Shown here: positions 8,794 to 49,641 of the stretch, one piece after another | How the letters are laid out: every line of letters starts with the position of its first letter | How positions within the stretch are numbered: position 1 is the first letter of the stretch | Assembly: GCA_051294905.1 (NCBI GenBank) | Contig: CM119371.1 | Location: forward strand, 3,474,001 to 3,538,000 | Reading direction: 5' to 3' | Length of the DNA: 64,000 nucleotides | DNA from: Botryllus schlosseri | Taxonomy: Eukaryota | Translations under genes and position numbers: made by a program | The notes under the pieces: model-generated | What the model saw: the letters and a program-made list of their open reading frames with translations, nothing else | Databases searched by the model: none | What the model was told of the DNA's origin: nothing

Positions 8794-8986
8794 CAATATT
8801 TCCTCTAAGCTGAGTACGTGCGTAATTGCGCAGAGCTGACACGTCCTCTGAGCACAGAAGATCTAAGCTGTGCACAAAAACTCCGAAGTGATGATCATTT
8901 TTTCAGTCGTTACGCACTGCTGTCCAAGGACCGCGCAGTGAGTTGAAGAGTGCGCGCAGACTCGTTAAAAATTAGAGGGAACATCG
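8794..8986. mobile_element. Short hAT MITE (CAATGTTCCCTCTAA family)
   Basis: TIRs and TSD (A/C)TGCTAAG; same family at 36517-36707 and 60787. Confidence 0.8.
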
Positions 8987-9833
8987 CTGCTAAGTTAATG
9001 TGTACATAGCATAATATTATTTTCACATCAATTACCGGGGATGACTGTTTTTCCACAACAAAACTCACTGACCATGTAAGAATGCTAACAAACAAGGTTG
9101 AAACTGAACAATACAATAATCAGACAGCAATACCGAAGCTGGAAATTGGAATCAGCATTCACCCAAGTTGATTAATCAAAGTTTATGTAGACTAAGGGCG
9201 AAGGTTACGGAAGCTGGTTCATCCAGGTTAATTATGATCGTAGAATAAAAAACTTTTAATATTGGCTAATAAACTTTGATACCGGTATTGCGTTTCCCGA
9301 AAAATGAACATTTGCATAATATCCACTCTGAAGAGTAAATCCAATGTGCCGTCTACCATCGTCATATATTGCGCACAATTAGCCAGCTTTCACCGCCCGG
9401 CAATTAAACTAGGTCGGTCGTCATACAGGCCTTCAATGATTTGGGATAACAGCTGATGTCTATGGCAAATCACTATTTGGAGTAGCTAATCTTCAAAGTA
9501 AGCCATCGCTGTCGGGTTCGTGATATCGATGAAAATAATCTTGATATACCGTACTCATATATCATGTATGTTCATAGTTCGCTGAGCAGGTTGCTACTAG
9601 ATCGTTCCCATCGAATATGATTTTGAAAATTGCTATGGTTCCCACAATAGGCCTAACCGACGTGAAAATATGACCCCGAATGGATTGCTACGAACAGTGC
9701 ATCGCCGCGAAAAGATGTGAATATTTCACCATATGATATGTGAAGAGGGGAGGATTCAAAATTAAATAAATTCCAGAATAACACAAAATATCGTTTTCCT
9801 ACGAAATGAATCATTTGAAAAAGTATGACTCAC

Positions 9834-10147
9834 TCGTATTCGATTTTCCAGACACCTTGCAATGATGTCCAAAAGCTCATCGTCGATGCTGCAGTATGGT
9901 AAATTCAAAGAACCAAGGATCTGATTCCTTGCTGCAAGCGATCCAACGATGTGAGCTTCATCGCGATCCAATGAGATGCCAGATGCGTCAATGACGGAAA
10001 GACCTTTTATAAGATTGTCGTCGCCCGATTCGTAGATTGCTGTATATAGTTCCATGAGAACGTATCTGTCTCCGTATTCAGTCTCATCGTGAAGTTGTGA
10101 ACGAATCGATCGATAAAGAATATGTTGCTTCTGTGTTTGATCCGAGA
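9834..10147 (-). CDS. NLR-like gene, HD2/first LRR exon
   Basis: Acceptor ttgcttgacag|TC (phase 1, matching the upstream donor), donor CGA|GTGAGT. Translation LMELYTAIYESGD...LGSLNLPYCSIDDELLDIIARCL matches the NLR HD2-to-ribonuclease-inhibitor-type LRR transition. Confidence 0.82.
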
Positions 10148-10229
10148 CTGTCAAGCAATACACACTGTCGTTGTATTCGTAATGTTTCTTGCCTTATTGT
10201 TTACATAACTATTGTATGATTTACGTGAG

Positions 10230-10535
10230 TGTGATGAGCGAGGGTTCAAATGGAGTCATTGAGTTCTAATCGCTAGTCCACAATAACAGGAGCATTTCAT
10301 GCGCATCCATGTCACATATCCGACTGAGATCGACTCCAGAATGTATACCTAAGTGTTGGAGGTTTATATAGGCTCACCCTCCGGAAGCTATATCTTTCAA
10401 AAAGCTTAAAAGTGGGCCGTGCTACAAGTCGGCGGATGCGAAATCAAAAATACAAAATATCGGCCTGGCGTAAATGACACCTTTAGTCGACAGACACCAT
10501 AAATACACGAAACAAACAAACAAACAAACAAACAA
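10230..10535 (+). mobile_element. SINE-like retroposon with (CAAA)n tail, in an NLR intron
   Basis: 3' part is homologous to the TSD-flanked insertion 19781-19977 and ends in (CAAA)n; 5' boundary approximate. Confidence 0.65.
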
Positions 10536-10794
10536 TGTCACATAGTGATCATCGATGAGCCCTGGTAGCGCTCACGATCAATCTGTGAAGTTATGCAGAT
10601 TTTAGATCCATAAGTTTTATTTAGCCGACTGAATGTAAAGACTTATTTACCGGCCGTGTATGAATTTAAGATCTTTCGACTATTTCACCCCTTCGGTTTT
10701 GACGATACCATCAAATTCATGATAAACTATAAGCGACCCATAATAATCAATCGGTGCTGCGGCAGAATAGTCGCGAAAAATCATGATTACTTAC

Positions 10795-12234
10795 CGCTGT
10801 GAAGTTTGCTAGTAGATTTCATGTAAACGATGCCTGTAACGAATCTTCGAACCACGGACCATCGTTTCTCATGTAGATGTTGGCCATCAAAGCGAGAGAA
10901 CCTTTCAAGCTCCGTTTCCGAGATAAAACTAGCTGCCAGAAATTCCTGCATGCTTTGATGGCAGAAGAAGAATGTGAAGTCGCCTTCCATCAAGTGACGG
11001 CTGAGGATGTTGTTGTCAGGCACTTTCGTCATCAAATCCTGTACTTCGTCCGCGGATATTCCAAACCGATCCAAATCTGCTTTGTAGAACACGACTCGTC
11101 CCTCTTTCATGCCTTCAAACGCCATTGCCTTCAATTTGTTGATAATCGAGAGGATTTGCTTACGGTTTCGGATGTTTTCCACACTCCGTAAGACTAACAG
11201 GATCCTGCTGTACAGTTCTGTCACGGTAGACGGAGGAGGTCTATCTGGATCAATTCCCATCACCACCGCTATCAAAATCAGGAAAACCGGGACCGATACT
11301 AGTTGTAATAATCGCGGTGACATGATTTCAATCTTCTCCCAGAGATGCTTCCCGTTGTCACAGAGAAGACACGTGAACAGTTTATAAGCATCTTGTAGTG
11401 TGAGACCATTGAGGGTGATTATTTCTACAGGGCGTGCTTGCGCCGGTAATTCGGAGACTTTGAATTCACGTGACGAGACGATGATCTTGACGTGACGAAG
11501 GATCTTGCGGGATAAGATATTGTACATGATGATCGCAGAGCTCGCGTTCTTATATGGCGTAATTTTTCTGAGGCTACACTCCCCAAGATCCCACTGCATT
11601 TGATCAAGCCCGTCAAAATTGATAACTGCATCACTTTGATTCTCGACCAGCCATTCGAAAGCTTTGTCCTCTTCAGATTCATTTTTGAAGAGACCGTCAA
11701 ATAGAAACTTGGATGTTTTGATACCGCTCTTTGCATCCATGTTCTTCAATTCAATATAATGTATCATTTTTCGTTTCGGTTCACCGTTGTCACTCACAGA
11801 TGAAATTCCGAGCGCTTTTTGAGCAATTCTCCGCATGAGGGTGGTTTTACCCGATCCTGCAGATGCGACGATAGCAGTGTAACCAACTTTATCGTTTGAA
11901 GGTAATTTCTCATACTTTGACAGCGATTCCATTATCTTTTCCATTGTTATCGATTTACCGTCGTTGTCGGATTGACGATAAAACCCGACTTCCTCTATCA
12001 ACTGACTTTGAAAATCTTTTCTTTTAGATTCACGAACAGTTTCGTCAGTTGAAGAATTTTTATCGCGAAAACGCCCTTTGTAGTAGTCATCAACCTTGAC
12101 TTCCTTCATCTGCGGGAAAACCTCGAAGTCAGGTTCGTGAAGAAATTCATTCTCGAAGTCTTCGCGAATGCTATTTGCCGTTTCTTGTCGAGTATGGTCG
12201 TTTATAACCTCTATCAATTTCCTGTAATCTTCAC
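10795..12234 (-). CDS. NLR-like gene, NACHT NTPase exon
   Basis: ORF 10787..12217 has Walker A ASAGSGKTT, Walker B VINFDGLDQ, sensor-1 IIVSSR, helical-domain VPVFL and winged-helix FFFCHQSMQEFLAA. Acceptor ttttttcgacag|GT at 12234, donor G|GTAAGT at 10795; 1440 nt, phase 1-1. Confidence 0.92.
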
Positions 12235-14077
12235 CTGTCGAAAAAATATTATTGTAGCTTTTATCAAGTATCGCACAAAATTTAAAGGAGTAATTTCAAA
12301 AAAGACATGCTATAAAACGATTTCTGGTATGGCTCTCTTTCTGTTCGGTTTGTTAGCAATTCTTATCAGTTCAATACACCACAAAATTGCGATACAATGA
12401 AAGGATAGGAAAGTGTCGAAACCACTTGGAGTAGTCTATGGAATCAGACACCCACCTTGGCCTAGGCCAGGGATGGCCAACCTTTTCGACTAAAGAGCCA
12501 AATAAGATTAATGTGCATGCAGATGTGCTTTTGGGCGTCCGATAAGAGTGACCCGGATAAGGTAATGGCAAAAAAGATTTACATACTATAAACAACAAAA
12601 TCGATATCACTTATGTCACGAAAACTCTCTGTACGTGTCCTAGCAGCGCGAAACGCCAATTTTTTCAAAGGCATTGAAGATAGATCAATAAAATAATGTT
12701 AGTTGCATATATTGTGGTGGGTCGTTCCTGTATACCGCTCGGCTCGTTTGGCCAGGACATGATTAATCGCCGCTTGGACATATCAATATCGAAAGTTCAG
12801 TGAGCGTGCGTCAATTTTGTGCAAAGTTTTCATCGCTGACGATCTTTCCGCGAGTGCAGACGCCAATTCGCATGTCGGACCACATATTTTTGCATAATTG
12901 CCGATATAGTTGAACTCAATTCCGTATATTAGGGATATGTTTAATTTCCTTGAGGATACAACGCTACTAAAAGCAAGAAATCGATCGGCAATAAATCGCA
13001 CGAGGTGCTGGAAAATATTAAGTCAAATAAGTCTGACCGCGAAATATTCTACTTTATGGTTATATACGAATATCTACGAAATTGTGGATGACCCTTGGCT
13101 ACGTCAATACGTCAGAACTGATATTTTAGTCATGAACGTCCCAATGTCCACGGTCAGGCTAATCATATTTTCAGTTGCCCTTGCAAGTTCACAATGAATT
13201 ACCTGGCTAATATATTTTTGGATATTTTAAGTAATTTCGAGAATTGCCTCGCGGGCCACTCAAAACCTTCTCGCGGGCCACAGGTTGGCCGGCCCCGGCC
13301 CAAGCGATGTAAAGAGGAGGTATGTACACTGAATGAGAAGTAAAAGTAGTACAGAAAAAAAGCAAGCGAAGAAATGGAGTGGCATTTCACTGAAAGCGAG
13401 ATCGATAGTCAGTAACAGTATTTGTATCAGTTCTGCTCGATTTGCTCAACAATGAGCTATGTGATGGATTAGCTGCATCCTAATGATATCTATGGCACAA
13501 TGGTTTGCAAACAAGAAGTTCAAAAACCACATCCAAAGACGACAGTGCCTGATCTCTCTCTATATATATAAAATATATCGCTTGATTTATTCACTTTCGT
13601 TTCAATCTGTTATAATTCACTTCGGACACTCAAGCGAGACCGCTGACAATGACAATTTCGTTGGGTTACCTTTTCAGGCTACTGATTTTGCTAAAGTCGT
13701 GAACACTGCGTTTTGCTGCAATGCCTTGGGTCAAGTTTGCATATCTAGGAGGTTTCAGGTGCGTGGTACTTTACTTGTTTTATGGATGTGCACTATGCAC
13801 GGATATTCGCGGAAAATTACTTCCACGCGTTGCGTTACGTTCTTGCTGCGTACCGGCAAAACATCTAAGTTTCAGCGGTCTCGCCAGGCCGTTCGTGAAA
13901 TAAGAAAGTACCATATTTGACAGCTCTGCGCGCATGAGGGGACAGCGGAATGCTGTCATGTAGTTTCAAACCGAAAGAACATAAAATGGTATACATGATT
14001 GATTGAATAACGAAGAAAGAAGCTAAAAACAGACACCCTGCAAATCTTAAACTTTTCGAGTATCTAATACCCTAATA

Positions 14078-15614
14078 CAGGGGTCGGCAACATTTTGCTA
14101 GTCACGGGCCAAATTTCGAGTGCACAACATTTTAGCGGGCCGGATATTTTCTTATTACTATATTTATCGATCACGTCGGTATATTGCCCTACAATGCTGC
14201 AATCTCAATCATACAAATCACAAAAAGAGCAAAACACATGTATTTACACTTCAACAACGCAGGATAAATGTGACACTTGGCGCAGCTTGATTTGTGAAAG
14301 GTTTTCAACTTCTGCTAACAAGTCAGATGAAGTAAGAATCAGACCATATTCTAAATGGGCGTTGGAATACGTGATCTTAGCTAGCTCTTCGTGAATTTCA
14401 TAGTTGAAAACAAAAGTTGATGCCATTTCTTTTGCATTGTTGTTCAAGCTAGGATGAAGACCCATTTCAAGAACGTACTCTTTGTCAAAGTCATTCAGCG
14501 ATATGCTCTTTGTATGAAATTTGTCATTTAATTCAACTCCATCTCATTTCAAATGGGCCTATTTGAAATTTTCTGGCAAATGTTTTGGCGTTTACATTAA
14601 ACGGAGTACGGAGTAGTCCGAATATATTTTGTACAGAACGAATATCGGAAAAGCGGGTGGAAATTCAGTAATTAAATATTCCTATATCACAGTTACAAAT
14701 GTATAGTGCTGGTACTAGATTTACTCTCCTCCAGAGGAAAGTGAGCATAATTTTCTTTGTACTTTGACATTCCCAGAGTTGCAGTTTTGTTTCGAATGCG
14801 TCTCAACTTCTCATGTAGGCTATTTAGTTGTTTCCCCCAGAAGTTGCAAATTCAATTTGTTTAGATGTGGCGTTAAATGTACTACGAAAGCTAGATTAGA
14901 TACCCATTTTCGATGACAAGATTATGAGTTGGCGATGTTTGTATTTTCAGGGAAAGTTGCTATTTCATTTCTCAGTTCATACACTCGTGCAAGCATAGCT
15001 TCTCGACTTAATGCGCGAACATGGCAGATATACAAGACATCGCCATATTGATGCTCTGCTTCTAGTAATATCTGAGGTAGGTAGGCTAGCTGTCTGTCAT
15101 TCAGTTTGTGAGACAAAAACACTATTCAGGCTTGTTGTCTTAGCGTAAAATGTCTTCTGGTGAATTAAACTACAGATGACTAACCTATGGATGTTAGTTA
15201 TCTATGATGAAACAGGGAAAGTTTGAGATTTTGTCATTGCGTCGGAGCAGAGGAACGGCACCTTTATTGTCGCACCCTATCTGAGAGGCAAAATCCCTTA
15301 AAAAAGTATGGTATACCCTCGGTTGCGCAATACACCTGCTTGCTAAGCACTGGTCTAGTCTATTCCACAAACATTCTCCATCTCCTAATTTCAGTACGAG
15401 ATAGGCTACTAGTCGATCGCCTTCGCACCAGTTTCATGGCTTAACAATAGACTAATACTGCGTAGGATACTTTATATTGGAGCAATGCCGCATTCTTTCC
15501 AAGCAGTGCTGCACTGCAGATTGGAACTCATTACGAAACGGCGGGCCGTATTCTCGTGGGAACTAGTTATTTCGTCGCGGGCTGGACGATTCCGCCGTAG
15601 GTTGCCGACCCTTG
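14078..15614 (-). mobile_element. Decayed hAT (Charlie/Buster-like) transposon with transposase remnants
   Basis: TIRs CAGGGGTCGGCAAC/GTTGCCGACCCTTG, 8-bp TSD CCCTAATA; remnant YGDVLYICHVRALSREAMLARVYELRNEIATF is typical of GTF2IRD2/EPM2AIP1-like hAT transposases. Confidence 0.88.
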
Positions 15615-18476
15615 CCCTAATATATCAAAAAATTATAGATGCAAATCTTTACTGCAACTTTCCAAATGCAACAATAACTTTCCATAGTAATAATTAAACT
15701 TTATGTAGAGAGTAAGGGTTCTCAATCGTTGGGGCATGGCCCAATGGTGGGCCACATGAGTAATGTAAGGGCTATTTGGAAAATTGTGAAATTAGTGAAA
15801 GCTTAGTTATATTTTTTATATTTTTATTATCGAATTATACGTCGGCCAAGTTTAGTTATGTTTTTTATATTTTTATTATCGAATTATACGTCAAAGATGG
15901 GAGGGGAAACAGCGGATTTTGTCTCCTGGATATGACAACCTACGGCCAACAGCAACGGCAATAATTTCGATTATATAATAACTGGAAGTTATTGCTGTAC
16001 AAGCAACCAAGTATTCCAGCACTGTCATACGCCGTATGCCATTCAAAAGGATTTAAATTAAACTCGGATTGAAATGCATTCGACGCAGAATTACGGTATC
16101 CTTGATTGGTGGATCATCCGATAATTATCCAAGAAAAACTCACATAACTCCGCTTATACTAGTCGGAATTGAGTCAAATACGTTTTGCATCGGTTGGCAG
16201 AAAAATGTGATTTTTTTTTATTTTTTCCAATAAATGAAAATTTTTAATTGGATTTGTGGAGGGAGTCCTATATTGTTAGAATTGAACCAAATTTGGCGTG
16301 CAGCGTTTTTTTAAGGTAGCCTGAAAATTTAATAAGTGAACGGCTGGAATCCGGAAAAAAGGGTGTTTTTGAACAGCCCTATTATGCAATTAACGTCATG
16401 TATCTAAACCACAGTAGATAGCAGACAAAGCCTACGAGGCCAGCGACACGACATTTCGAGCACGAGTCCTATTACAGATGCGATTACTTGGGCCTACGGT
16501 TATGTCGTGCGCACCAGATCGGTTGGAGATGCGACTGATTACGCAAGGGATTGCATCTCCCGCACATGGCCTGTTGAAGATGCGATTGTTAAGGCCTGTC
16601 GCTGACGCGTACGCGTGCAGCAATGTCGTGCTCAATGATGTAGTTTCGCTCGCGTACAAACGGCAAACTAACTCAGCAGGAGATCGAGTTCTGTGCTGCT
16701 CATTGATTGGCAACACGTATCTCGCTAATTGGCAGCGCATTACACTGAGAATACGAATTACTGGGCACGGTAGCTGAAAGTGATGCGTGATTGGAAACAA
16801 ACACAAATAAAGGTGTGATTTCAAGTTTCTATCGAGGGAGATTTTTACAAGGCTTGTTGTTCCCATGTATAATTCGCACCCCCTATTTTAGGGCAAAAAT
16901 CGGTAAAATTTTGCGCATTAAGCCAAGCATAAAGAAATAAACACTGGTATAGCAGCTATTGATGATATCAGTATAGCTTACAGCAGCTGTGTACGCCCGT
17001 GACAATACCTGCCAGTGTTGGGACCAAGTCACTAGCTTCAGTCATGAGTAATTTCGAGTCATTGAACATTTTGACTCGAGTCAAGTCAAACGACTTTCGA
17101 AGCTGACTCGAGTCAAGTCAAGTCAGTCGATTTTTGGAGGTGACCCAAATCAAGTCAAGTCACGAGTCCAATCACAATTCAAATCAAGTTTCCTTTTCGA
17201 AGTAGGGGGCATGATTACGTTATTGCATTTTGCTAGCTGTCTGAAATACAGATTGAGTGGTGATTGATTTTGAATAGAACCGATGAACGAATATAGAGCT
17301 AAATATACATGCAATAAGGCGTTGTATCGCTCACATATAGGCTACGTATAACTGCTAAACTACGTAACTATAACTGCATAGTCTCAGTTTATAGTTACCA
17401 GCCAAAATAGACAACAGAGAAATGAATTGATAAAATACAATACATTACCTATTTGAATATGGATATGATACAATTCGAACCTGCGCCAATCGTTGTGGAC
17501 TATATAAACTAAATTCGAATTCAATTTCATTAAAATAAAAGCTTTGATTAGGGTAAGAACAGAAAACAGAAATAGACATTTTGCTAATAAATTACTTCAC
17601 TATACTATTTTGCGACAACGTAAGCTGTAAGCTTCGATCACTTCGTTTGCTGTCGATTTATTTTAGCAATGGAGGCTCAGTAAAACGCACAATCATTGAG
17701 TGATTGGTCGCTCTCACAGATTAAACCAGCGTTTTGCGAACAATACGAGCATATGCAAGATACAGTGATTAGATATAGTGATATGCAAGATACAGGCATT
17801 GAACTCCAACTCGGCCACATCGGTATGACGAGCCAGATATCAGCATCACTCTATGTGGCCTAAAAACCTGCGATGTTCCTTCTTCCTTTTCATTCTAATC
17901 CAGGCTACGAGTTTGAAATTTATGAGGCATATTTCTCTATCGCCCTCTGCTGACTCATATCCCTATTCCCCCGAAACATTTTGTTATATCCTAGCTGTTG
18001 TTAAAAAAGCTTCCTACCCCGGCGGCAGATCAGTCTCTTTCACTGCAACACCAATCCTGCCGTTTATTTTTTTGAAGAAACTGCTGTACGCAGGTTGTTG
18101 CTGTTGTTGTTGCCGGTATGGTACTCTTGAGGTATAGCATTATGACGTAACCCACTTCACCGATGGTTTAACCTTAGGTCACGGGAAAGTGATGCGGCGA
18201 CCATTCATTGCGTATAAATCACTAAACTATATTAGTTTTCCATGCTTTGTTAGTGGATCAAACTGTATGCAGATCTATTAGTTTGTAGATAAAACTATAG
18301 ACTGTATTAGTTTGTAGATCAAACGCTATGCCGGCCGGCCAACCCGTGGCCCGTGAGAAGGTTTTGAGTGGCCGCGAGGTAATTTCCGAAACTTCTAATA
18401 TCATCCCAAATGGATTGCACAGATTGTGAACTTGCAAGGCCAACCAAAACCAGTCACATATTGGTAGTATATATAT

Positions 18477-19494
18477 TAGGGTTACCATATTTTAGTGGCA
18501 CAAATTCCGGAGGCTCTTCAGCGCCCATTATCGGATTTCATAATGATGTATGATGAGCACATTGTCCATCAATATGACGTCGCACCAGTAAGGATTTGTC
18601 TATCGACTAGAGGCGGTCAGGATCCGGTTCAGGAGTATGTGGTTCTGTGTTATAACCAGCGCCGAAGCCACATTTCTTCAGCCCCCTCCCGCCCAAATAA
18701 GCACTGATCAAGGGTCCACCGCAGGGTAATCGATGCAACTTCTGCGAGCTTACCATATGCATCTGGTCGTTAAATCATTTGAATGAATTATGTGAATGAT
18801 ACTGGTTCTTCCATATACTACTATATAATTTTGATCCTCTCTCCGCCCACACGATCAGAGTTAGAGGTAAGCTGGTGGAGGATGATGACTTCGAAAATGC
18901 AAGGAGCGTAGTCGTACATCGCTAAGTCATGTTTATGTCACACCGATAAGATTATTTATCAGCCAACCCCATTGCGCACTGCACGACTGAGGTATGTAAA
19001 CACCGAACATCCGGTGGTTTCCAACCTTTTATGGTCGCGACTACATTTCCAATTTGAAAATGTTCTGTGGCCCAGCTCAAAATCTGATGAACTGATTATT
19101 AATTAAAGGTCGGCATATTTGTCCAGACTTACTCACAGACTCTATGAATATTGAATATACCGTTATCTTGTAATCGCGATTACAATTAGACTTTATTTTG
19201 TAAATGAATTTTATTTTCATTTATTTTTGATCGCAGTTTTTGCGAGGGTAGTAGTCCCCATATTAAAGCCAATATAGATGATACTAAATTGCCAGGCGCG
19301 AAGAAAAAATTCATGTAGCATAACATGTGCCCAAAAATAATATCGTTTTTGTTGATTTACGAAAATATTATGAGCTTACTTCAAGCCTTCAAAATTCCGG
19401 ACATCTAGGCATATTTTAGAAATTCCTCCCGGAAGCAGTTTTAACAGTGAAATTCCGGACATGTCCGGGAAATTCCGGACGTATGGCAACCCTA
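18477..19494. mobile_element. hAT-like element (TAGGGTT(A/G)CCATA TIR, TCCGGA repeats)
   Basis: Inverted termini; it interrupts a sequence that is contiguous near 4830; a right-end fragment also lies at ~4110-4331. Confidence 0.75.
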
Positions 19495-19780
19495 GTATAT
19501 CTTCGTACACTACAATAAAGCAAAATGATTTGCAATAGATTTATCAAAAGTAAAAAATTTCTACAAGCTTGTAGTAGCGCAAAATGTTGTCACTCGATTT
19601 CTTGTTTTAAATATTGTTGCCCCTTTGTGAAAATGAAAGAACGCCTAATGTATTAGATTGAGTCTAACTATCTTCGCGATTACGAGACAATGTGTCGTTC
19701 AACATATGCGGCCTTGCGTTTGCGCTCGCAGTAAGACCGTCGACTATGAAACCTATAGGCACAAATTGATTGACGCATTT

Positions 19781-19977
19781 CCTAAACCCAAGTGTTGGAG
19801 GTTTATCTATAGGCTCCTCCTCGCCACCTCATCCGCGTAAGCGGTGTCTTACAAAAAGCCTAGAAGTGGGCCGTGCTATAAGTCGGCAGTTACAGAATTT
19901 AAATGAAGAATATCGACCTGGTGTAGATGACCATAGTAGTCGACAAACACCATGAATACCTCAAAACCAACCAACCA
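19781..19977 (+). mobile_element. 5'-truncated SINE-like retroposon with (CCAA)n tail
   Basis: 12-bp TSD ATTGACGCATTT; empty site in the sister hAT MITE near 5086. Confidence 0.82.
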
Positions 19978-22387
19978 ATTGACGCATTTAGGTCGCAGCT
20001 TTCGATATCGATATGTCCAGGCGCCAAATAGCCCAGTCCTCGCAAATTTAGCCCAGCGAAATACAGCAGGCCCGCAATATACTCAAGTGACAATATTATT
20101 GACCTATGAACTTCAAAAAATGTTCGTGCTATTCCACTTTGCGCTCAGAGAATATGTATCACAAAAATGGTTCACAAAATATTTTAAACGCGGCTTGCGG
20201 CCCTCATCGATGCAAATATTGCACTTTAATTTGTAGAAGGTGAATGTATATTTGGTCGTCAAATCGCGATAGGAGATGGTGTTTCTCAGAGCACGCGATG
20301 AAATCTAAGTTTCTAGCGATAAAGTCGAAATTTTACATCTCATAACGATCGTTAGTTTGCTGAAATCAGCATCAGTACGCTGCACGAAATACATATTAGG
20401 GATCAATTTTATCGGACTGTACAATCGGCCGGCAAGGTTGTGCTGATACCGAAATTGCAGACATGCCACAAACCCGCAATAATTAGAATGACAGGGTGCG
20501 CTAGTCAAGTCATACCTAAATACCCAGATTCGGCAATGGCAATGAGCACAATTTGTTTAGACGCGGGCATAAGTTTTAATCAAAAAGATACATAATCGCA
20601 AACAATATCACACTCAGAGATTGTTATTGTTTGGCGAAAGTGTTTCTGTGGACGGTTGCAGGCCTGCATGCGGACGCGCTAAATCAAATCACCGAAGATG
20701 GTGCGCATGAGATATCGAAGACCCATTTCGCATACAGATGATTCTCGCCAATTTGCAGTAGGCTACGCAGCATCGATAATACGAATTAGTGAATTGGCAT
20801 TTCAAAAGGACGGGATTTCGAGTTTTAAATGAGAAACTCACTGGCTACGCACGCAGTGTTTTAATACCGACAACGCGCTGGTTAATATCAGTCCGGAGCC
20901 AACGGCCTGCGTAGGTCCCGATCAGCCAGTCGAATTCGATCGCGGAATGGCGCGATTTTAATTATCAAAGGCGTTATTGCAGCAAGAGCAATATGGGCGC
21001 ATGCCGCATCCTTATTAGTGCGAATACAAATCCTGATGGTTTGAAATTCGTTCCGTGATATGGTTGCGACCGATAGAGTCCATCCAGCATTTAAGTTTAT
21101 TGGAACATAAAAGGTTCCCGCTCAAACTAATCGATTGAATTCAGAATTTGCGCCATAATCTCCATTTGCGCCACATAATCTCTTGTTGCATCAATATTTG
21201 ATATCGTAATTCAACGCAATGCACTGCACATTGTGCAGTATTAATAACAAATTAAACACTGACAAGTGACATCGACGGAATACGAATATATAAAGCAGAC
21301 AAGAATGAGTAGCCTATAGATGATAGCAAACGAAAAAGTAATTCATCAACCTGCGTACAGCACAATGAGGTACCGAGTCTGACATCGCGACAATTGTTTG
21401 CTCATTATAACGACGTTTGAGATGCATTGCTGCATATCCCGATAAAAGTTAGTAAAGCCTTGTTAGATTAATGAGTATGCACACTTTGCGCACGAATTTA
21501 TTTCTATTCGCAGGCATACACAAACACACCTTCCTATTTCGTGCTCCAATTAAAAAGACTATCACAAAACTAACTCAAGAATTATTTTGCAAACGAATAT
21601 GCGCGCAAATACAATTCAATTGAGAAAAGTAGAACGTGAATTCGTTCGTCTGGTGAAAAGAGGAGATGGTGTTTCTCAGCGCAAGCGTGTCGAAATCGAC
21701 GCCGTCAACGAGGTCGCTTCAATTGTATGATTAGTGATTACTGATTAGTAATCACTGATTAGTAATCACGGATTACATTTTATATGGGCGTTTAAGGCGA
21801 TAGTTGGCATTTACGCGATATAACGGACTCGCTAATTGACAGCGCAGACGGTGGGCGTTTAGGCATTTTGCATGGAGTGGCCGCCACCCCATAATTGTGT
21901 CATGGGGTGGCTGCGCCACCCCGCCACCCCGTAACTCGGCGCCTATACAGAAACGCCCAGGTATACTCTGCTCAATATCAACGTAGTAATAATCACACGC
22001 CGAAAGACAGATTAATTGGCCATTTGTCTTAATTCAAATAACGAATATAAAGTTAAATATAGATTATACATGCATAAAGCCGGTGTATCGCTCACGCACA
22101 CGTTGAAGTGCTAATAAAATTCGTGAGTAACTGTATAGCTACATGCGGCCGTCTGTAATTATGATCCTAGGACCTAGAGGATCGTACGAAGCTTCGAAAA
22201 GTTGAAACCAATCGATAAGGTGCTCTACGTCCGTCTACACATCCGTGTGTATATAAACTCACAAACTATGTTCGTTCGATTTAAAATATAAAATGGCATT
22301 GGTAAAGGTGAGCACTGCGCACTGCACAATGTAAGCAATGAGTCGTCTAAGAAAAAAGATGCGTTGCTATTAGATTGATCTACTACA

Positions 22388-23203
22388 CAGGGGCGGGCAA
22401 CATACGGCCCGCGGGCCGGATCGGGCCCGCGAAGGGATTTTGTCCGGCCCACGGACAGTTTTCCGTCTTATATGATAATGCGGCCCGTGGCTACAGTCTG
22501 CCAAAATTTCCCGCTACTTGCTTACTACGTCAAATTTTAGTGACTGTATGTTATTATATACAATACATGTATGCGCACTGCGCAGCGTGCGAGAGTGGAG
22601 CTTACGCGTAAGTTCGTCGAAACGGGAAGAGTTGCATCATCGGCATTTACGATGTACTCAACCCTAATATCGTGTGTGGTAATCATGGCGTTTGTTGACT
22701 ACAATGGTCATTTACACCAGGCTGATATTCCTTGTTTTCGATTCCGTAGCCGGGTCGCGGGTCACTTTTCAAATGTCGTAGAAGCCGCGATCCGCATGAA
22801 TTTAATATCGAGATGAAATAGGCTACACAGTTGAACAACGACGCTATCACGTCACCTATTCAGCCCCAATGAATGGATATCTTGGTACATTTGGGGTACT
22901 GGGCTTATCGAACGCCTTGAAATCCTAATTAGTGATTGCTGCGTGTGTTGATTGATCAGAGAGAAGCATGACATGGCGTCGCCTTTATGACAATGCTGTT
23001 CTGAAATTCACATTGTCTTCGTCATTATCGGCGAGAAATGGCTTTGAAGTGACATTGCTGTCGTTAAATACATTCCTTAAATGCGATTTACAACTTGTAT
23101 ATGTGGATAAATGGGCGAATAATGCATCGATTCAGCAATCCGGCCCGTCAAGTACATAATTTTGCTATATCTGGCCCCCGGCTGGAGAAGTTGCCCGCCA
23201 CTG
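22388..23203. mobile_element. hAT MITE (CAGGGGCGGGCAAC TIR)
   Basis: TIR pair with GGCCCG subterminal repeats; imperfect TSD containing TACTAC. Confidence 0.78.
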
Positions 23204-24688
23204 TACTACGACAATGTAAGCTGTGATCGTTTCGTTTGCGGTAATTTTATTTGTGATGTAACAATGGAGGGTCAGTGAAACGTACAACAAGTGAATGACT
23301 GGTTGCTATCACAAGTGACACCGGCGTATCGCGAACAATCCGAAAATACATGAGACAGAGTGACTTGATCGACACCGTTACTGGATGACTTGCAATTGAC
23401 TCGTAAATTTTGGTCCGAGTCACGAGTCAATCCACATTTCTGAAGCTCCGAGTCAAGTCAAGTCAAGTCATTTTTGCAATCTGACTCGAGTCAAGTCAAG
23501 TCATACGAATAGTTGACTCGACTCAAGTCATGAATCGAGTCATCCCAACACTGCTATGCAGTGTCGGCTATGCAGTGTCGGCCTATGATATGGATCGGAT
23601 ATATGAACCAATCCCGACAAAATATCGCATGAACATTAACCCTTTGCGACCGGCTGTCCAGTATACTGGACAACCATTGTTTAACACAGAGGAGTCGTTA
23701 TTTAACCCAAGATAGCTAGACCTGTATTGGTCATAAACTGTTACAATCGTTTCATAAGGATAGCTCGTATGAATACGCATACATCGGACCATGTATAATC
23801 TATTATATCAATGTATATCCTATTTGAAATGAAGATTGAACACGCAAAAACGTTTCCAGCAAAATTGAATTTGTAACGATGTTCGCTTGAATGAACGCCT
23901 GAAAGGTAAACCATTGTAACTTCCGTTCTAGACGTCATATAACCAGTTACAGTTATCTTCCATGACTTGCTGTAGATTATACCATTGTATGAGAGCCCTT
24001 ATATCAAAGATTAGCACGTAGAAGATGTTTCAAATTGACGTGAAAGAAAGCAATACCTTGCCACGTGAAAATCATGGCTGCGTAAGAGCACCTGGCTGGT
24101 TGCGGTTTCAGACAGATGTATAATTGCTTCAGGCAATTGCAAATTATACATATAGTTAGCCATTATCCTGGCAAATCCATCAATATCCCTATCATGGAGC
24201 TTAGTTTTGTATAAGACAACAGACACCAGCCATAGTATCGCATTTCCATATCAATATCAATCAATATCATCATTTTCATCCCATTATGCGGACGAATGCT
24301 AATGCTCTCGAAAATTGAATACCTCGTGATATGCATCAATATGAATTAAGCTCGACACCTTTTCGCATAGCTCAATTTGCACCTTTTGACAACCCATGCG
24401 AACGAATGATGATCGTTTCCACAACTACTTACTTACTTGAGTAGATTTAAAGTCGGTCAATTCTACTTCTACTTCAAGTACTTTTAGGTTGCTTGTGGAA
24501 GAAGTACTTCTACTTGTGCTTGAGTAGATTTTTTCGTCGCTACTTCTACTTCTACTTGAGTAGCTTTCTTGACTACTTTGACCAACTCTGATTGTGGGAA
24601 CCTTGTAGTAAACATATGTTGTGTTGAAAACAAATATTTAATCAAGTACCGTGCATCATCTATTTAATGTGAATATGACATTTATTAC

Positions 24689-24868
24689 CTTTTCCTGTTC
24701 TTCGTTTCTGATTGTTCGTATTTCCTGAGATGAAGGTTGTGCGGTCCTTCTCTTCGCGGTTAATCACACCATAACTTACTGTGTCAGCAATGAGATCACC
24801 CTCCACCGTTATGGGCCTACCATACGCCGGTGAAGACGAAGATCTTTGCTCAGACTCCGTAACAATAT
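24689..24868 (-). CDS. NLR-like gene, predicted exon 3 (...GRPITVEGDLIADTVSYGVINREEKDRTTFISGNTNNQKRRTGK)
   Basis: Acceptor ttttattgcatcaatag|AT, donor AAAG|GTAATA, 180 nt, phase 1-1; joins in frame to the exon at 12234; within ORF 24660..24938. Confidence 0.65.
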
Positions 24869-25738
24869 CTATTGATGCAATAAAACAGTAAGGAACTATA
24901 GAGTATATAGAAGACATGTCAAAATTCGTTCTATTCATAGTCAGTCAACATTCACTTGAACGTCAAAATCAGTGTTACTGCACACTATTGCCTTTATTCC
25001 CAACTTAATGTATTCATTGATATATGGCAGGGGTCGGGAACCTTTTACGACCGAATAACCATATTGACCAAATATTTCCAAGTGAGCTATATATATATAT
25101 TAATGGACTGTTACGTCACAATGGAAAAACCGTAACGGATTTGTAGCACTAATACATGGAATTCGTAGTGTTCGCCACATTTTATCTGCTCACATGCAGA
25201 GGTGGTCAAAGTAGTCAATAACCTAAATCTACTCAAGTACGAGTAAGAGTACTTCTTCCATAAGCAACCTATAACTATTTGAAGTAGAAGTAGAATTGAC
25301 TGACTTTGATAGTACTCAAGTAAGGATTTAGTTGTGAAAACGATCCTAATTCGTTCGCATGGATTGTTAAAAGGTGTAAATTAAGTTGTGCGAAAGGTGA
25401 CGAGTATGATTCATATTGATGCAGACCAAATGGTATCCAATTCTCGATAGCATAAGCATTCGTCCACATCATGGGATGAAATTGATGGTATTGATATGGA
25501 AATCCGATACTTATCCTCTGTTTTCTCAAACAGCACGTTTTAGAAAATAACATGGTATGGCAACATCTCCCATATTATAAGGCCCGCAGTTTAGTCGAAG
25601 TCCTTATTTTAAGAAAATGAATCGGGTCAGGTCTGGTCATCAGAAATTCGTGAATGAGGTCATTATAACTTTGCCCCAGATATACACGACCTATGTTGAC
25701 TATGTGGTGGAGTAGGATGCACTTCATAGTACACTCAC

Positions 25739-25888
25739 GTTGGTCTGGTGAAATTGCGCCAGTTCCAGAATTCATAATGTAGTTGATGATGGTCTTGTTC
25801 CCGTGAATTTGATCTCCTGCCACAACGTTGACCGAGCTGTTTATGATCCGTTGATTGATATTTTTGCCTTCGGCCAAACTTGCAGATC
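25739..25888 (-). CDS. NLR-like gene, predicted exon 2 (N/I/V/G-rich: ...KNINQRIINSSVNVVAGDQIHGNKTIINYIMNS...)
   Basis: Acceptor tgtctcag|GA, donor C|GTGAGT, 150 nt, phase 1-1, open; overlaps ORF 25575..25877. Confidence 0.7.
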
Positions 25889-27116
25889 CTGAGACACGCG
25901 AGAATATTACGTTTGATATTCCAATGCATACTCATTTGAAAGCATTTTTAAATCAAGAATCGATCATGGGAACTTCCCATAATTTCTCATTAATATTAGA
26001 TTATGCAGCGACCGAATATTATTATTATATTTCAATAATTTAAATAGATGCTTCGTGGTACGGCTCAATTGAATATAGCTTTCAATGTATTCATAGTAGT
26101 AGAATATTTATTGAACTTGAAGACTTTTAGGGTGCCTCTTTTCGAGAGTTAACGGCACACCAAAAAGATTTTAACAGATTTAAAAGTAAAACCAAAAAGG
26201 CTAAGTATGACACAACAATCAAAATCACAGACCATGAGATTCGCATTGTAACTATGATACCAATAATAAACTTTGAAGTGCAGTACGGTACGGTTGCCAG
26301 TAAATTCGGCCCTCGCGGAATTTTGTAATAAAATGTATAAACCAACCATTAATATGAATCAATAACATAATTATACTACTAACAAGTGACTCGGAGGTCA
26401 GGGTATGCGTAGATCGCGGGAGATACGCGGAGAATTTTGTATTAAATGTATTCCCAACTACTAACATGAATTACACAATTATCTTATTACCAAGTGATTT
26501 GGAGGTCAGGGTATGCGTAGATCACGCAGTCACGGCCGATGACGAGAATATTTACGGGTTCGAATACATTTTTATTGAAAATTCATTTTATGCGAAATTC
26601 ACCGTGGGCCGAATTTCCGAGGGCCACTGGCAACCAACGCCCCACGGTACTATAGCTACAGCGCAATTTATAAATATACAGTTGCAAACACGAAACAAAA
26701 CAAACTAAGGAGAAAATAGTGAGTTATGGACAAAATCTCTTTGTCAGCATAAAATAGGTTTGTCAATTGAATATGGGTATAATTCAGCACTTTTAAATGA
26801 AACAAAGATCTGTGAATAGTGAATATATTGTCATTAGGTATAGTGTTGTGCGCAGGCGAGATTTTCACTGAAATGATTACCAATCGACAAAGCATATGCT
26901 TGGAGTAATCTTCATAACAATCTGTTTTGGCAGCTTATTTGCATTGGCGTGCGAGCTCTACGTGGTCATTTGCGCATGTTTTTGAGCGAATCAATTCGGG
27001 AATATGCTGCTTTACACGGTCAAACAGTCAATAGATAACTTTAATATTATATCATATGGATAATATATAATATTAGAGGAAATAGATGGAACTCAAATAT
27101 TCTAGTAATTACTTAC

Positions 27117-27189
27117 TGCTTCCTTCGGGTAGTAATGGTGAAGGCACATCAGCGACACCAGAAATTCTTGCTTCTCCCCCTTTCGCCAT
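27117..27189 (-). CDS. NLR-like gene, predicted exon 1 (MAKGGEARISGVADVPSPLLPEGS)
   Basis: ATG at 27189 (atcATGG), 73-nt open frame ending at a consensus donor A|GTAAGT (phase 1), compatible with the phase-1 exon at 25888. Confidence 0.65.
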
Positions 27190-27813
27190 GATAACGATCA
27201 CGCAATGTTAACTAATTACTATATCACACAATACAAAGACGGTAAATCGCCTACAATATTTGAGAAATGTTATTTGAGTACCGCGCTGAGACTAAAGGAT
27301 TAGATTCGAGTCCTCGTATTCAGGACCTGTGAATAATATTCACAACTTTGGAAAATACCGAGCGAATGAGATTGATGAAATAAGTTACACCAATTATACA
27401 CGAGACGGATAGCTTCATATTTGGCAAGGCGTTATTGGGGCTATTCACACTTCCATTTGTGTGCCTTGGAGTCGACTTTTTATCAAAATACACCAGCCTA
27501 TAACTCTGTAAACAGAAGAAGCTCGTGAACCACCTGGGAAAATTGCAATGAACGCTCTCTGATTCGAAATGTTATGCTAGCGACGTCACATTTTGTGATA
27601 CGAGTGTTGATATACAATGTTCTTTCCAAGTCTCTACTAGTTGCTGAGGATGATCCCTGACGAGTGTTCACCGAAAAGATTCGGGTTCATTTCAATATAA
27701 ATAGACCTATACTATTCAATTGTATATGGAAGATCTGTCGCCTACCTCCAAGAAGCTCTTCAAATTCTGGAAAGTAATAACAAGCCATCCGATGTTTTGC
27801 ACTACCGCATATA

Positions 27814-28925: not shown

Positions 28926-31900
28926 ATGAACATGGGTCGACTGAATCAAGAAACTGCTTTATTAGTCAACAGATTTCAACTTCATTGAATTCGATACGAC
29001 TAGACATCCGCAGCATTATCAAATAATTTAGATATACGTCTTTGATGGCCGTTACCATGAGTCACTATCACTTGATCCTAGCATACTGATGAAAAGTATC
29101 CATGATTACCTACGGTGTGACTACTAGATAATGAAACGAGCTCACTCAACATGATTAATTTCGTGTAAGTCATCGAATGATGCATATCGCTGGATTGCTT
29201 CGTAAATTCTGCATGGTAAAAGACAAGCGCAAATACTGAACTTGTTGAACAGCGAAAATTTGTGGACATGTCAAGTATGATTTTGTAATAGTGCGGCTGC
29301 AATCATAGTCTGTGGAATATGCATGGTATTTCTTCAAATTAGCATGCTACTTTCGGATTCCCTACTAATTATTTTAGACTGCGCGAAAATCAAGCGGGCT
29401 AAATTGAAAATACGCGGTGAATTTCTTTCAATACAACGATTCAAGTACCTATATTTCCTAACAACTGCTTTAGGCGCGACAAGATTTTAGATAGTAACTT
29501 TTTTGTATATCAATCGGAAATAGATATCTTCAATGACTGTATAATAATTTCTCTTTACTAAGGTCACATCTGATTCACCACGTGGCAGCAAGTTATGTCT
29601 GAATAAACAATGGCGCATACATAGCTTTCCGTAAATGATATATATGTTGGAGTGAGTCAACTGGATATTATTTGTTTGTTTCCGTTGATTTTGCAACACT
29701 GCGTGGATACGGGCGAATTGGTATTGTTAAATATGTACCATGGGAAAAATTCAAACACTGCAGTGTTGACTTCACGGCGATTCGTGACATACATCGGTGA
29801 AGTCCAAGCTGCGATTACATAATGATAAGTTTTCTAACTAATTGAATGCTAAACTGTTTGTGCTGGCGGGGCAGTTGCCTTTATAAATCCAAAAATGTTA
29901 AATATTTGACAAGATTACTCGCTGACTTTGATGGGTAAACGCTCACTAGCAATCAAATGAAACATCATATTGGTAAAAGTTTATCTGTTAATCGTATAGG
30001 ATAGTTGGCATTGTTCCAATTGGTCGTTGCGTTGACGCACATTTCTGATCCCCGCATAGAGCATGTTTACACGACCCAGAAAACGGAATCCAAGCAATAT
30101 CCCCAGTAAATGCAATATCGCTCTGTATGTCGTGGAGGAAAAGAAATGTAATTGATAGAGGTAGTTTGCCTGCATAAGTACCACAATTAGGGATTTTATG
30201 ATATGTCCGTAAATCAGTGGCTGTTAACATGGGTTCGATCGAACATACTGGGATTCAACAAGACTGTATTCTGAAATATTAACACTTAGGCCGACTTAGG
30301 ATTTATCAGCGAAATATCTTTGTAAAAATATCCGAACCCAAACTTGTGTGGGGCTCAGGTGATGATAAATAACGATCAGTGTGTTTGACGGTGGATCTAA
30401 TGATGTCATCTGCGTGTAACACACATAAACATATATTCTTCCTGGGGCTGCTTTTTCAAGGGATTCATTCAACACGACACTGGTTTAATTGCGTGCATCC
30501 GATTTTTACTATCGTAAAGCAGAATAGCACCCGCGAACTCGTTATACCTAACCTACATCTCGTAAGCTTCGAAATCCTAAATACCGATTTCAGGGTGCGT
30601 TACTTGATTAGAGGGACAGTGCATACATGGATCGTCAGAAAAATTAAGCTACTACTCTCAGATTATAGCTGCTAATACTTTTCCGAATTGAACTAGCTTT
30701 GGAATTATGGCCATTAGGATATTTATCCAAATTATATGGGTCGTTTATGAAAATGGTTTCATACCCGTTCATACCCGTTTCATACCTTCACTGAAACTTT
30801 GGATATGTGTCCATTGTCAATAGCCACGATGGGTGGATGTGACGAATAGTGCTGCCCTTCCAATCTGAGTTCCACAATACAAATGACATCCAGGGCACCA
30901 CAGAGAAAGAAACACATGAAAATTTGTGTGCGCGTCTCGCGAATTATTTTTTTAGTATACTACGTTTGGGTGAATAAAATATCTTTTGATCATATAACAG
31001 ACGGGAGGTCACAAACTATATTCAAAAAATTGTCTCGAGTCTGACTCCAGTCAAGTCATGAATCGAGTCATCTCAACACTGGTTTTGCCTCGAGTCAAAT
31101 CGAGTCATTTTCAATTCACCACCGAGTCAAATCCGAGTCCAAGTCATCGAGCCGAGGTTCGAGTCCACAATTATACACACAGCATTTTAAATCTCTTTCA
31201 ATGTGAAATTAAAATTATATGTGCACGGTATCCTACGTATGGCATGTGTATTCCGTCTTATGTTCCGAATATGACATCCGTACGCAAAGCCATATAACTA
31301 AAATTTTGTCATTCGAACTTATCTAACTGCGTAATAATATAAATAATATATTTGATTATATGATTCGAACATTCATCGAACTTCATCTGTAAATCAATCT
31401 GATTCGTTCAGTTGATGATGAGATAAGCGATTATTGAACAAATGATGCGGCTGCAACTTTTGAATCGTAAAATGAGCTCCATACACATAATAAATGTTTG
31501 GCGTCGACTGATATATGGTTTGTTTGTTTCAGTTGACTATGCAGGTACCTTGGGGTGCATTGGTCGTCACGTTGCACATTGTACGCACTGTCAACGCACT
31601 TGATTTGACGCATCAATTATCTTCATTTAATAATCCTTGGTTGCGGAATGCTATTCTTGAGTCGGTTCACTTACACCACAAGCTCGCAGTCCCGTAAAAA
31701 TTTCAAAGTTGACTTACCAGAGTAATTTTGGTTTGCAATACTCATCATAAACTTATCTTGCTTCCACAAGAATACGGACAAAAGGAAACGTCCAACCAAC
31801 ATCTGTGTGCCAAAATGATGATAAGGCATTGATCTTTGTGATGATGTTGTATTAGCACGACAGGTAATGTGGAATGCAATAAAAAATTAGTTGCTGGTAA

Positions 31901-31944
31901 TCATGCGCATCATTTTCCAAATGTGAAGCATATTGCACATCTGC

Positions 31945-32196
31945 GAGCGAGATAGTGTAATGGTGTTGCGTCCGGCTTCTTGATCGGTAGGCCGTGGGTT
32001 CGATCCCCGGCCATGTCTCGAAAACTGGTATGCGCGGCTATCTTGTTAGGCGCTCAGCAGAAACGGATAGCATGGAGGAGAAAACGGGGCTGTAGATTTG
32101 ATGAACTTACTATAAGGGCGGTCGCATGTCCGTCGTCAAAGCTTCTTGATGTTGCGGGCGAAAAAGAATACCATATCTCTCTCTCTCTCTCTCTCT
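31945..32196 (+). mobile_element. tRNA-derived SINE with (TC)n tail
   Basis: Pol III box A TAGTGTAATGG (31953) and box B GGTTCGATCC, then a body and a (TC)n tail. An orthologous, partly 5'-deleted copy lies at ~44988-45227. Confidence 0.85.
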
Positions 32197-43422: not shown

Positions 43423-43650
43423 GTTGTTGTTGTTGTTGTTGTTGTTTTTATTAACGCATATAATTGGCGCTTGCAACTCGTGGTTATTTGCGCCCACACA
43501 GAATCGCATAATGGCATGTCTTCATGAACTTCAGTCTTTTTTCGGCTCATTTGCTGCCTCCTTTCACAAGTTCGGCTCTCTCGTCGTCTAATGGGCTTTT
43601 CAATGCGCTGTATTACAGCGGGTTCGTCGACGAGGAGCCCAGATAAACCT
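43423..43650 (-). mobile_element. Probable decayed LINE 3' end with (AAC)n tail
   Basis: (GTT)n tract at ~43423-43446 adjoining a basic, RTE-C-terminus-like ORF remnant; boundaries approximate. Confidence 0.4.
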
Positions 43651-45760
43651 CCGACACATAGAAACATGGCAGAGCCGAGATTCGAATTATGGAGTATTTT
43701 GAAGAGATTTAATTACCTTGAAAAAAAAGTTTTTCAAACTTCGTGATTTAATGTCTGAAGATAGCATGATTTTGAAATAGATACCTCCCACCCCCTCAAG
43801 AAAAATATATGCGACTCCACGAAGTTTGCTACCAAAGAAACACCTTCACTGAAACTTTGGGTATGTGTCCATTGTCAATAGCCGCGATGGGTGGGTGTGA
43901 CGAATAGTGCGGTCCTTCCAATCTGAGTTCCACAATACAAATGACATCCGGGGCACCACAGAGAAAGGAACACATGAAAATTTGTGTGCACGTCTCGCGA
44001 ATTATTTTTTTAGTCTACTACGTTTGGGTGAATTAAATATCTTTTGATCATATAACAGACGGGAGGTCACATCCTATATACGAAAAAGTTAACTCGAGTC
44101 TGATTCCAGTCAGACTCGAGTCATCTCAACTCTGGTTTTGACTCGAGTCAAATCGAATCATTATCAATTCACCACCGAGACAAGTCCGAGTCCAAGTCAT
44201 CGAGCCGAGGGTCGAGTCCACAATTATACACTCAGCATTTTAAATCTCTCTAGTTGTGAAATTACAATTATATGTGCACGGTAGCCTACGTAATAGCATG
44301 TGTATTCCGACTTATGTTACGAATACGACATCCGTACGCAAAGTCATATAACTAGAATTTTGTCATTCGAACTTATCTAACTGCGTAATAATATAAATAA
44401 TATATTTGATTATATGATACGAACATTCCTCGAACTTCATTTGTAAATCAATCTGATTCGTTCACCTGATGATGAGTTAAGCGATTATTGAACAAATGAT
44501 GCGGCTACAACTTTTGAATCGTAAAATGAGCTCCGTACACATAATAAATGTTTAGCGTCGACTGATATATGGTTTGTTTGTTTCAGTTGACTGTGCAAGG
44601 TACGTTGGGGTGCATTGGTCGTAACGTTGCACATTGTACGCACTGTCAACGCATCGATTATCTTCATTTAATATTCCTTGGTTGCGGAATGCTATTCCGA
44701 GTCGGGTAACTTTCCGCGCAAGCTCGCAGTCCCTTACAAATTTCAAAGTTGACTTACCAGAGTAATTCTGGTTTGCATTACGTACCATCAACTTATCTTG
44801 CTTCCAGGAGAATACTGACAAAAAGAAACGTTCAACCAACATCTGTGTGCCAGAACGATGATAAGTCATTGATCTTTGTGATGATGTTGTATTAGCACGA
44901 CAGGTAATGCGAAATGCAATATAAAATTAGTTGCTGGCAATCTTGTGCATCATATTGCAAATGAGAAGCATATTGCACGTCTTCGAACGGTGATGCGTCC
45001 GGCTTGTTGATCGGTAGGTCGTGGGTTCGATCCCCGACCATGTCAGGCCAAAGACTCGAAAACTGGTATCTGTGGCTATCGTGCTAGGCGCTCAATAAAT
45101 ACGGATAGCATGGAGGAGAAAAACAGGGCTGTAGACTAGATGACCTAGCTATAAAGGAGGTTGCATCTCCGTCGCCAAAGCTTCTTGATGGTGCGGGCGA
45201 AAAAGAATACCATATATCTCTCTCTCTGAAACGTCACAAATAAATTGCCACGATAAGATTGATTGGATGAATTAATACCTGGGGTTCCCAAACTAGGGTC
45301 GCCACTCTAACGAGGTCGCTTTTCTATTCTTTGGTGTCGGATAGGCAAAATTAAATACCGATGGCTACTATTAGAATGTCAACTAAGAGGATGCTATCGA
45401 CGGCTCATTTCTGAATATTTTAGTTCATTTTTAAAATGGAAGAAAAAAAACGACCTACGTGATATGCGATCGGGAGTACCAAGTGGTGAAAGGATGGTAC
45501 ATACACAGGGCATGTGCGAACGGCGCAGTCGGCTAGGTCAGTCGTATATCGTTATCTGTATTTCGCGTGACGCGAATTATCACATAAAATACTTGATTAA
45601 TTCGATTGGATATAAATAGAAAACGTCCTGATAGTCCTAAATAGGTTGCTATAGTATTGATTGAGTTTCTTAAGCTCAAGTATGGAGGTGAACGAGTTCA
45701 TAACTGCAGGCTTGGTGTTGCTGCGCACATACTCGCCAGCTCTAAAACATAAGTCGCGAG

Positions 45761-49593: not shown

Positions 49594-49641
49594 AGTTATA
49601 GCACGTAACGGACGATCCATCATCCCACTTTACCCGACCAA

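Follow-up and report, generated by a model that had tools for sequence, protein, structure and literature searches.

The window analysed here, a stretch of 64,000 nucleotides of the tunicate Botryllus schlosseri (GenBank assembly GCA_051294905.1, contig CM119371.1, positions 3,474,001 to 3,538,000 of the forward strand), carries on its minus strand a gene which, judged by its domain content, is an animal NACHT gene of the NLR type. Tunicates are the closest invertebrate relatives of the vertebrates. The focus of the present work is the N-terminal region of the encoded protein, for which an earlier note had proposed that three small exons, spliced onto the NACHT exon, encode short amyloid-like motifs in the place where animal NLRs usually carry a death fold. 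The parts of the gene model, listed in the direction of transcription, are the following:

27189..27117, minus strand: candidate exon 1, 73 nucleotides (ATG, 24 codons and one further nucleotide); donor GTAAGT
25888..25739, minus strand: candidate exon 2, 150 nucleotides, phase 1 to 1; pyrimidine-rich acceptor ..gtgtctcAG; donor GTGAGT
24868..24689, minus strand: candidate exon 3, 180 nucleotides, phase 1 to 1; acceptor ..gcatcaatAG; donor GTAATA
12235..24688, minus strand: putative intron, 12,454 nucleotides, packed with repeats
12234..10795, minus strand: NACHT exon, 1,440 nucleotides, phase 1 to 1; acceptor ..ttttttcgacAG, with its dinucleotide at 12236-12235; donor GTAAGT
10147..9834, minus strand: helical exon after the winged helix, 314 nucleotides, located by tblastn; donor GTGAGT

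The NACHT exon and the exons proposed upstream of it

The NACHT exon has an open frame of 480 codons, retains intact Walker A (GSGKTT) and Walker B (FDGLDQ) motifs and matches the Pfam models NACHT (E = 4.4e-16, 59.6 bits with a cut-off of 26.7) and, for the winged helix, NOD2_WH (E = 6.2e-7, 29.9 bits with a cut-off of 23.1), while four Styela proteins align, with their helical region, to the exon at 10147..9834 (tblastn, E from 2.5e-5 to 5.7e-8). When the NACHT exon was compared by phmmer with 1.84 billion representative proteins, 762 matches were returned at E<=1e-3. The top ones (50-54% identity) are unnamed open reading frames (ORFs) of exon size in public assemblies, the named full-length ones that score best are RefSeq models of Styela clava, with 30-36% identity across the whole exon in tblastn, and weaker ones come from Clavelina lepadiformis, Phallusia mammillata, Ciona intestinalis and one fish. 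The exon opens in phase 1 and has no start codon and, therefore, upstream coding exons must exist. Their need is equally sure from the Styela relatives, in which the homology begins at residue 3-4 of the NACHT exon and which extend for 113-321 residues further towards the N-terminus.

The three minus-strand pieces described in the earlier note, the peptides quoted from them and the intron of about 12.4 kb are all present, and at the level of the sequence the observation is real. The ATG of exon 1 lies in a Kozak-like context (A at -3, G at +4), every junction is in phase 1 and canonical, with junction codons AGA, CAT and GGT, and a script check found exons 1-3 and the NACHT exon free of stops. 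Exon 2 encodes a segment rich in N, I, V and G; exon 3 encodes an S/P-rich linker, then another segment in which beta-favouring residues abound, and a basic tail, QKRRTGK. Together, exons 1-3 give a tail of 134 residues in which S, G, I and N are frequent (16, 14, 14 and 11). As to the splicing of these exons onto the NACHT exon, the canonical sites, the common phase and the open frame bear out what had been claimed, whereas homology lends it nothing, no homologue of the peptides having been found. The chain is the best model on hand and a predicted one, for which the odds seem roughly even or a little better; its firmest part is exon 2 and its weakest exon 1.

That the tail holds no recognisable death fold, as had been stated, agrees with the profile searches: the peptides of exons 1-3 match no Pfam family at E<=1, and none of the 146 minus-strand ORFs of at least 40 residues between 12313 and 33831 reaches any Pfam cut-off, the weak matches among them including no Death, CARD, PYD or TIR. 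The large intron at 12235..24688, which had been named as a place where a death-fold exon might hide, is, within the reach of profile searches, free of ORFs that match a Pfam domain.

How far the chain stands out from chance was assessed by crude splice scores and by a chain finder. Among the 667 candidate exons flanked by phase-1 sites that the minus strand offers from 12,296 to 47,000, exon 2 ranks second and exon 3 twenty-sixth by splice score. The chain finder had to choose, over the 35 kb upstream of the NACHT exon, among 497 possible first exons and, in any phase, 408 internal ones; its top path was exactly the chain of exons 1, 2, 3 and the NACHT exon, with a score of 13.0, compared with 4.2 for the opposite strand, 2.8 and -1.8 for two control stretches and -1.5 to 7.4 for 12 simulated sequences, all 12 of which it exceeds. 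A score for amino-acid composition, for which 16 ascidian NLR N-termini served as training set, puts the peptides of all three exons within the top 0-0.6% of 511 window ORFs; when the score was applied more strictly, in a sliding window, the ORFs containing exon peptides ranked 18 and 23 of 1,250.

N-terminal regions of the ascidian relatives

The relatives in Styela, Clavelina and Phallusia belong to three different ascidian orders, and many of the ascidian NLR models inspected have N-termini outside any Pfam family, often of low complexity and with an abundance of beta-favouring residues. A Pfam scan of 15 relatives found Death in one Styela protein (P0015) and TIR in two Clavelina proteins; in the remaining 12, the region before NACHT is free of Pfam domains. 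Such N-termini occur in NLR relatives from four ascidian species, some paralogues of which carry Death or TIR, and a domain-less region ahead of NACHT is, to judge from these predicted proteins, common in this NLR family.

In Styela clava, modules of two kinds, both rich in beta-favouring residues, make up the N-termini, and S/P-rich linkers and a basic patch come after them. In P0170, a unit of about 120 residues, made of module, linker and 'PCPVYE', occurs in three tandem copies, which shows cassette amplification ahead of NACHT; P0182 lacks a block of 25 residues which P0012 has directly after 'LLVAG', as expected from a cassette exon. The module follows the pattern '..VAG|SA[ST]..NVEI..SNIH..G..ATT..', and AlphaFold2 gave no structure for residues 1-83 of P0012 (predicted local distance difference test, pLDDT, 20-28, with an alignment of 30 sequences). 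A profile of the Styela module, run against proteins of more than 133 residues, returned 18 matches, all from Styela clava; 13 of them contain NACHT, and the remaining five are truncated or mis-joined NLR models. This partner search covered one module, and its reach was limited by a word filter.

Five clusters of Clavelina lepadiformis NLRs (P0051, P0080, P0087, P0090 and P0094) have in common an N-terminal motif of about 55 residues outside Pfam, 'G.V.I...P.YYHHD.RQYQD.REF.Q.D[IV].[DN]S..[IV]N.G.G', which in two of the five precedes TIR in a TIR-NACHT arrangement. The Phallusia protein P0055 begins with a stretch rich in G, Q, N and V, and the Ciona protein P0130 has an H/Q-rich tail.

The predicted product of the window resembles the Styela clava NLRs (e.g. 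XP_039264287.1, that is P0012, and XP_077969750.1, that is P0016) in having beta-favouring segments outside Pfam, linkers and a basic patch before NACHT; it differs from them in that their N-termini show no significant similarity to the window exon peptides and that they possess C-terminal leucine-rich repeats (LRRs), which were not found in the window. BLASTP of the N-termini of 13 relatives against the 2,879 window ORFs placed neither the exon 2 nor the exon 3 ORF among the 40 matches that ranked highest, which extended to E = 7.7. By eye, some likeness to the Styela modules can be made out (VSGSASL with VAGSASL, PAYGRPITVEG with PVYEV.P..G and TIINYIMNSG with KIVNYNYYLG), which was ruled out by shuffle and profile tests. 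Nor are exons 2 and 3, on comparison of their peptides, repeats of each other, their Smith-Waterman score of 18 being equalled or exceeded by 88.6% of 2,000 shuffles.

The best score in the ESM Atlas was 0.81, a low recognition that gave no lead. In the PDB, a sequence search with the exon 2 peptide gave one match at E=1 and one with the Styela module profile A1 gave three, the best at E=0.41; all were set aside as chance matches to beta-rich proteins. AlphaFold2, run on the exon 2 peptide as a single sequence, gave a helical hairpin without evidential value (mean pLDDT 57; predicted template-modelling score, pTM, 0.27).

Readings of the N-terminal tail

The reading favoured here, tentatively and at somewhat less than an even chance, is that of a tunicate NACHT gene with a predicted, lineage-specific and domain-less N-terminal tail, whose action, if it has any, would be by induced proximity. 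Exons 1-3, which appear to be the best upstream candidates in 35 kb, would yield a low-complexity tail of about 134 residues without a domain, in which two short beta-favouring stretches would be set among S/P/G-rich linkers and a basic patch would directly precede the NACHT region. Such a tail would be of the same class as the fast-evolving, cassette-built N-termini found in the NCBI models of many ascidian NLR paralogues. Oligomerization through NACHT would cluster the flexible tails, and the clustered tails might recruit or activate a downstream partner via short linear or strand-forming segments, rather than via a folded death-fold domain; nothing obtained points to a prion-like template.

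Several results weigh against this reading. The mechanism as a whole is one that we infer. The peptides of exons 2 and 3 have no relative in a search of 5.8 billion proteins and, in Smith-Waterman comparison with 182 related proteins, shuffled versions did as well in 47 of 100 cases for exon 2 and in 83 of 100 for exon 3. A first profile of the Styela module ranked the exon 2 ORF second among the 2,879 window ORFs, yet with E=1.8; with a cleaner profile exon 2 scored 2.7 bits, which 507 of 5,000 shuffles equalled, so that there was no significant match, a profile of the second Styela module ranked the exon 2 ORF 24th, and one of the Styela segment preceding NACHT ranked the exon 3 ORF 611th. 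The donor of exon 1 is unremarkable (rank 34 among 720 candidate first exons). The support drawn from the chain finder depends on its amino-acid composition term and on its splice weights: run without that term, the finder over-chained to 36 exons and scored the opposite strand about equally (148.9 and 144.1), and for these reasons the composition-free version is uninformative. Ranked by codon usage against 305 control ORFs, exon 2 belongs to the top 5%, exon 3 stands at 42% and exon 1 at 81%; this is weak and inconclusive evidence for the predicted exons. In a raw RNA run (X24, of which about 6% was read) mapped on 7800-27300, depth did not exceed 1.13 over the bins of the NACHT exon and elsewhere tracked repeats; among the 15 joints listed of 203, obtained from the RNA run and three contig sets over the same interval, none lies at a predicted intron, a result that is uninformative on expression and splicing. 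Over the intron itself (12235..24688), the DNA contig sets reach a very high, irregular depth, as repeats would give. Downstream, no LRR was matched by Pfam in 91 minus-strand ORFs of at least 30 residues between 1 and 9900, and no LRR exon was found by tblastn with the Styela proteins in the 9.8 kb at 1-9833. For this reason, a copy that is partial or in decay is conceivable; the gene may also continue past the window, have very divergent LRRs or be truncated.

It is quite possible, if short of probable, that the gene model is wrong or the locus dead, in that the three pieces would be chance ORFs and the real 5' exons would lie elsewhere, for example further upstream, at about 29.6-31.7 kb, or beyond the window, or in that the NACHT exon would belong to a pseudogene truncated at both its 5' and its 3' end. 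The peptides with neither homologue, paralogue nor transcript behind them, the low ranks of exons 1 and 3, the lack of LRR exons downstream and a putative intron of 12.45 kb filled with repeats would all be expected in such a case, and two alternative sources of N-terminal sequence are at hand in the ORF at 29490-29726, the only one in the window picked by the Styela N-terminal profile (E ~0.011), and in the short ATG exon at 31748..31718, which has a perfect donor. What speaks for the proposed chain is that it is the best-scoring path and above all controls, that the splice signals of exon 2 are near the best and that the NACHT exon has 480 open codons and intact Walker motifs; the ORF at 29.6 kb, for its part, has a weak donor, and its duplicate copy is interrupted by a stop. 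If, on the other hand, the exons are real, the tail might be a mere disordered spacer or regulatory region, involved in autoinhibition, localization or turnover, with the output passing through the NACHT or helical part or through a partner bound elsewhere. Its extreme divergence, which leaves conservation undetectable, the basic patch before the NACHT exon and the disorder predicted for the Styela counterpart would suit a spacer. We consider this improbable, as Death and TIR occupy the same position in related NLRs, which suggests that the N-terminal position carries an output module, and as the N-terminal modules are conserved among paralogues within Styela and within Clavelina.

The proposal from which the work started, namely that the N-terminal segments are amyloid motifs and that the oligomerized receptor templates a cross-beta fold onto a separate effector bearing the same motif, is possible, but we regard it as unlikely, and it gained no positive support in this analysis. 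The placing of the tail before NACHT, the predicted disorder of the linkers around its short N/G/I/V-rich stretches and the aggregation-prone runs predicted in it on one scale are what such a motif would call for; composition alone is, however, insufficient to define one. Other ascidian relatives have conserved short N-terminal motifs of like character, such as that of about 55 residues in Clavelina, and the Styela module is predicted by AlphaFold2 to be unfolded as a monomer. Conversely, the tail itself has no detectable conservation in the protein database, the relatives or the module profiles; all 18 proteins found with the Styela module are NLRs or truncated models of NLRs, and the Clavelina motif stands ahead of TIR in two of five clusters, unlike the split between receptor and effector known from fungi. 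The Pfam library, which none of the exon peptides matched, includes models of RHIM, of the HET-s prion domain and of the sigma motif. Neither conservation of the motif nor a match to a described amyloid motif family was found, with Pfam at E<=1 and the 182 relatives as the scope of the search. As the earlier note had itself observed, the I/V-Q-I/V-G tetrad that forms the core of a canonical RHIM, itself about 18 residues long, is absent from the translations of exons 1-3, and no candidate partner gene is visible in the window, where the only other gene bearing domains is a long interspersed nuclear element (LINE). The two beta-favouring segments are, moreover, unrelated to each other by Smith-Waterman. 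A broader version of the proposal would have ascidians swap the death-fold or RHIM adaptors of many NLRs for lineage-specific short strand-forming modules, which on oligomerization would form a cross-beta scaffold. The tail in the window, the Styela cassettes, the 55-residue Clavelina motif and the G/Q/N/V-rich tail of Phallusia would then make up a new metazoan class of signalling amyloids, having as partners other NLRs or proteins yet to be found; we hold this to be very improbable.

Short N-terminal motifs in known systems also bear on the amyloid proposal. The premise that animal NLRs rely on death folds only was too strong, in view of the RHIM-NACHT proteins described in amphioxus, while tunicates appear to be without RHIMs (both according to the part of PMC4262963, Kajava et al. 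2014, that is drawn on here). These amphioxus proteins, as presented there, share with the predicted product of the window gene a short non-globular motif at the position usually taken by the death fold of an animal NACHT protein, and differ from it in that its tail has neither the I/V-Q-I/V-G core nor a Pfam match. In the fungal NWD2/HET-S and bacterial BASS systems, as treated in the relevant part of a review (PMC7889193), a short beta-favouring N-terminal segment likewise precedes a NACHT-type NTPase; such systems are, however, defined by a separate partner with the same motif, mostly encoded close by, by conservation of the motif and by amyloid formation. Neither a partner nor conservation was found for the tail in the searches made, and its beta-favouring segments lie in predicted exons starting at residue 25, not at the extreme N-terminus. 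Whether RHIM is the sole signalling amyloid of animals is presented as an open question in the same part of the review (PMC7889193).

An analogy in layout is offered by the zebrafish NLR-B30.2 proteins (NLR-C), whose N-terminal peptide repeats are exon-shuffled and confined to that family (PMC4852459, Howe et al. 2016, in the portion used here). According to that portion, some groups carry, like the window gene as predicted, short family-specific N-terminal peptides instead of, or besides, death folds. The zebrafish peptides are true repeats, unlike those of exons 2 and 3, which are not tandem copies of one peptide distributed one per small exon, and no B30.2 occurs here. A search for literature on the N-terminal motifs of tunicate NLRs, judged by titles and abstract openings, found none, and the parts consulted of PMC12261475, PMC11508797 and PMC8662601 contain nothing on this subject.

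Taken alone, the present locus adds little, being one orphan predicted N-terminus, and its value is that of a pointer to the family-wide ascidian pattern, which is the more interesting lead. Should the N-terminal modules of ascidian NLRs prove to be assembly motifs, they would provide a second animal example and a tractable system.

Other open reading frames and elements in the window

Upstream of the gene lies a segmental duplication, in which 28988-33508 corresponds to 40242-46993 at a spacing of 11.2-13.5 kb, with 82-95% identity in 19 of the 20 blocks listed and no Pfam domain in its ORFs. One ORF in this region, at 29490-29726 on the minus strand, contains a candidate phase-1 exon at 29698..29621 ('..QTNNIQLTHSNIYIIYGK..') which resembles the Styela N-terminal module. 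It is the top match to the Styela module profile among the 2,879 window ORFs, with 13-15 bits, E ~0.011 and none of 5,000 shuffles as good. The candidate exon measures 78 nucleotides, compared with 75 for the Styela cassette, and has phase-1 sites on both sides, the donor being weak; it sits in the duplicated segment, in the other copy of which (about 40.8-40.98 kb) 'IIY' is followed by a stop. The candidate is perhaps what remains of an N-terminal cassette, perhaps a product of chance.

Each copy of the duplication also contains one short ORF beginning with ATG on the minus strand, 'MMSIANQNYS' at 31748..31718 and 'MVRNANQNYS' at 44788..44758. A consensus donor closes both of them in phase 1 (the copy inspected reads CTG|GTAAGT), and they could serve as alternative first exons.

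Further along, a LINE-type retrotransposon occupies 48241-53094 on the plus strand, in a region of strong AT skew. Both its ORFs are open, the first encoding a CCHC zinc knuckle and the second an endonuclease and a reverse transcriptase (RVT_1, E = 5.1e-36). Finally, copies of an element resembling a miniature inverted-repeat transposable element, with TACTTGAGTAG ends and GTAGAAGTAG runs, are found at 24420-24580 and 25195-25340, that is flanking exon 3 and between exons 2 and 3, and the translation of this element mimics a hydrophilic ORF (24487-24663).

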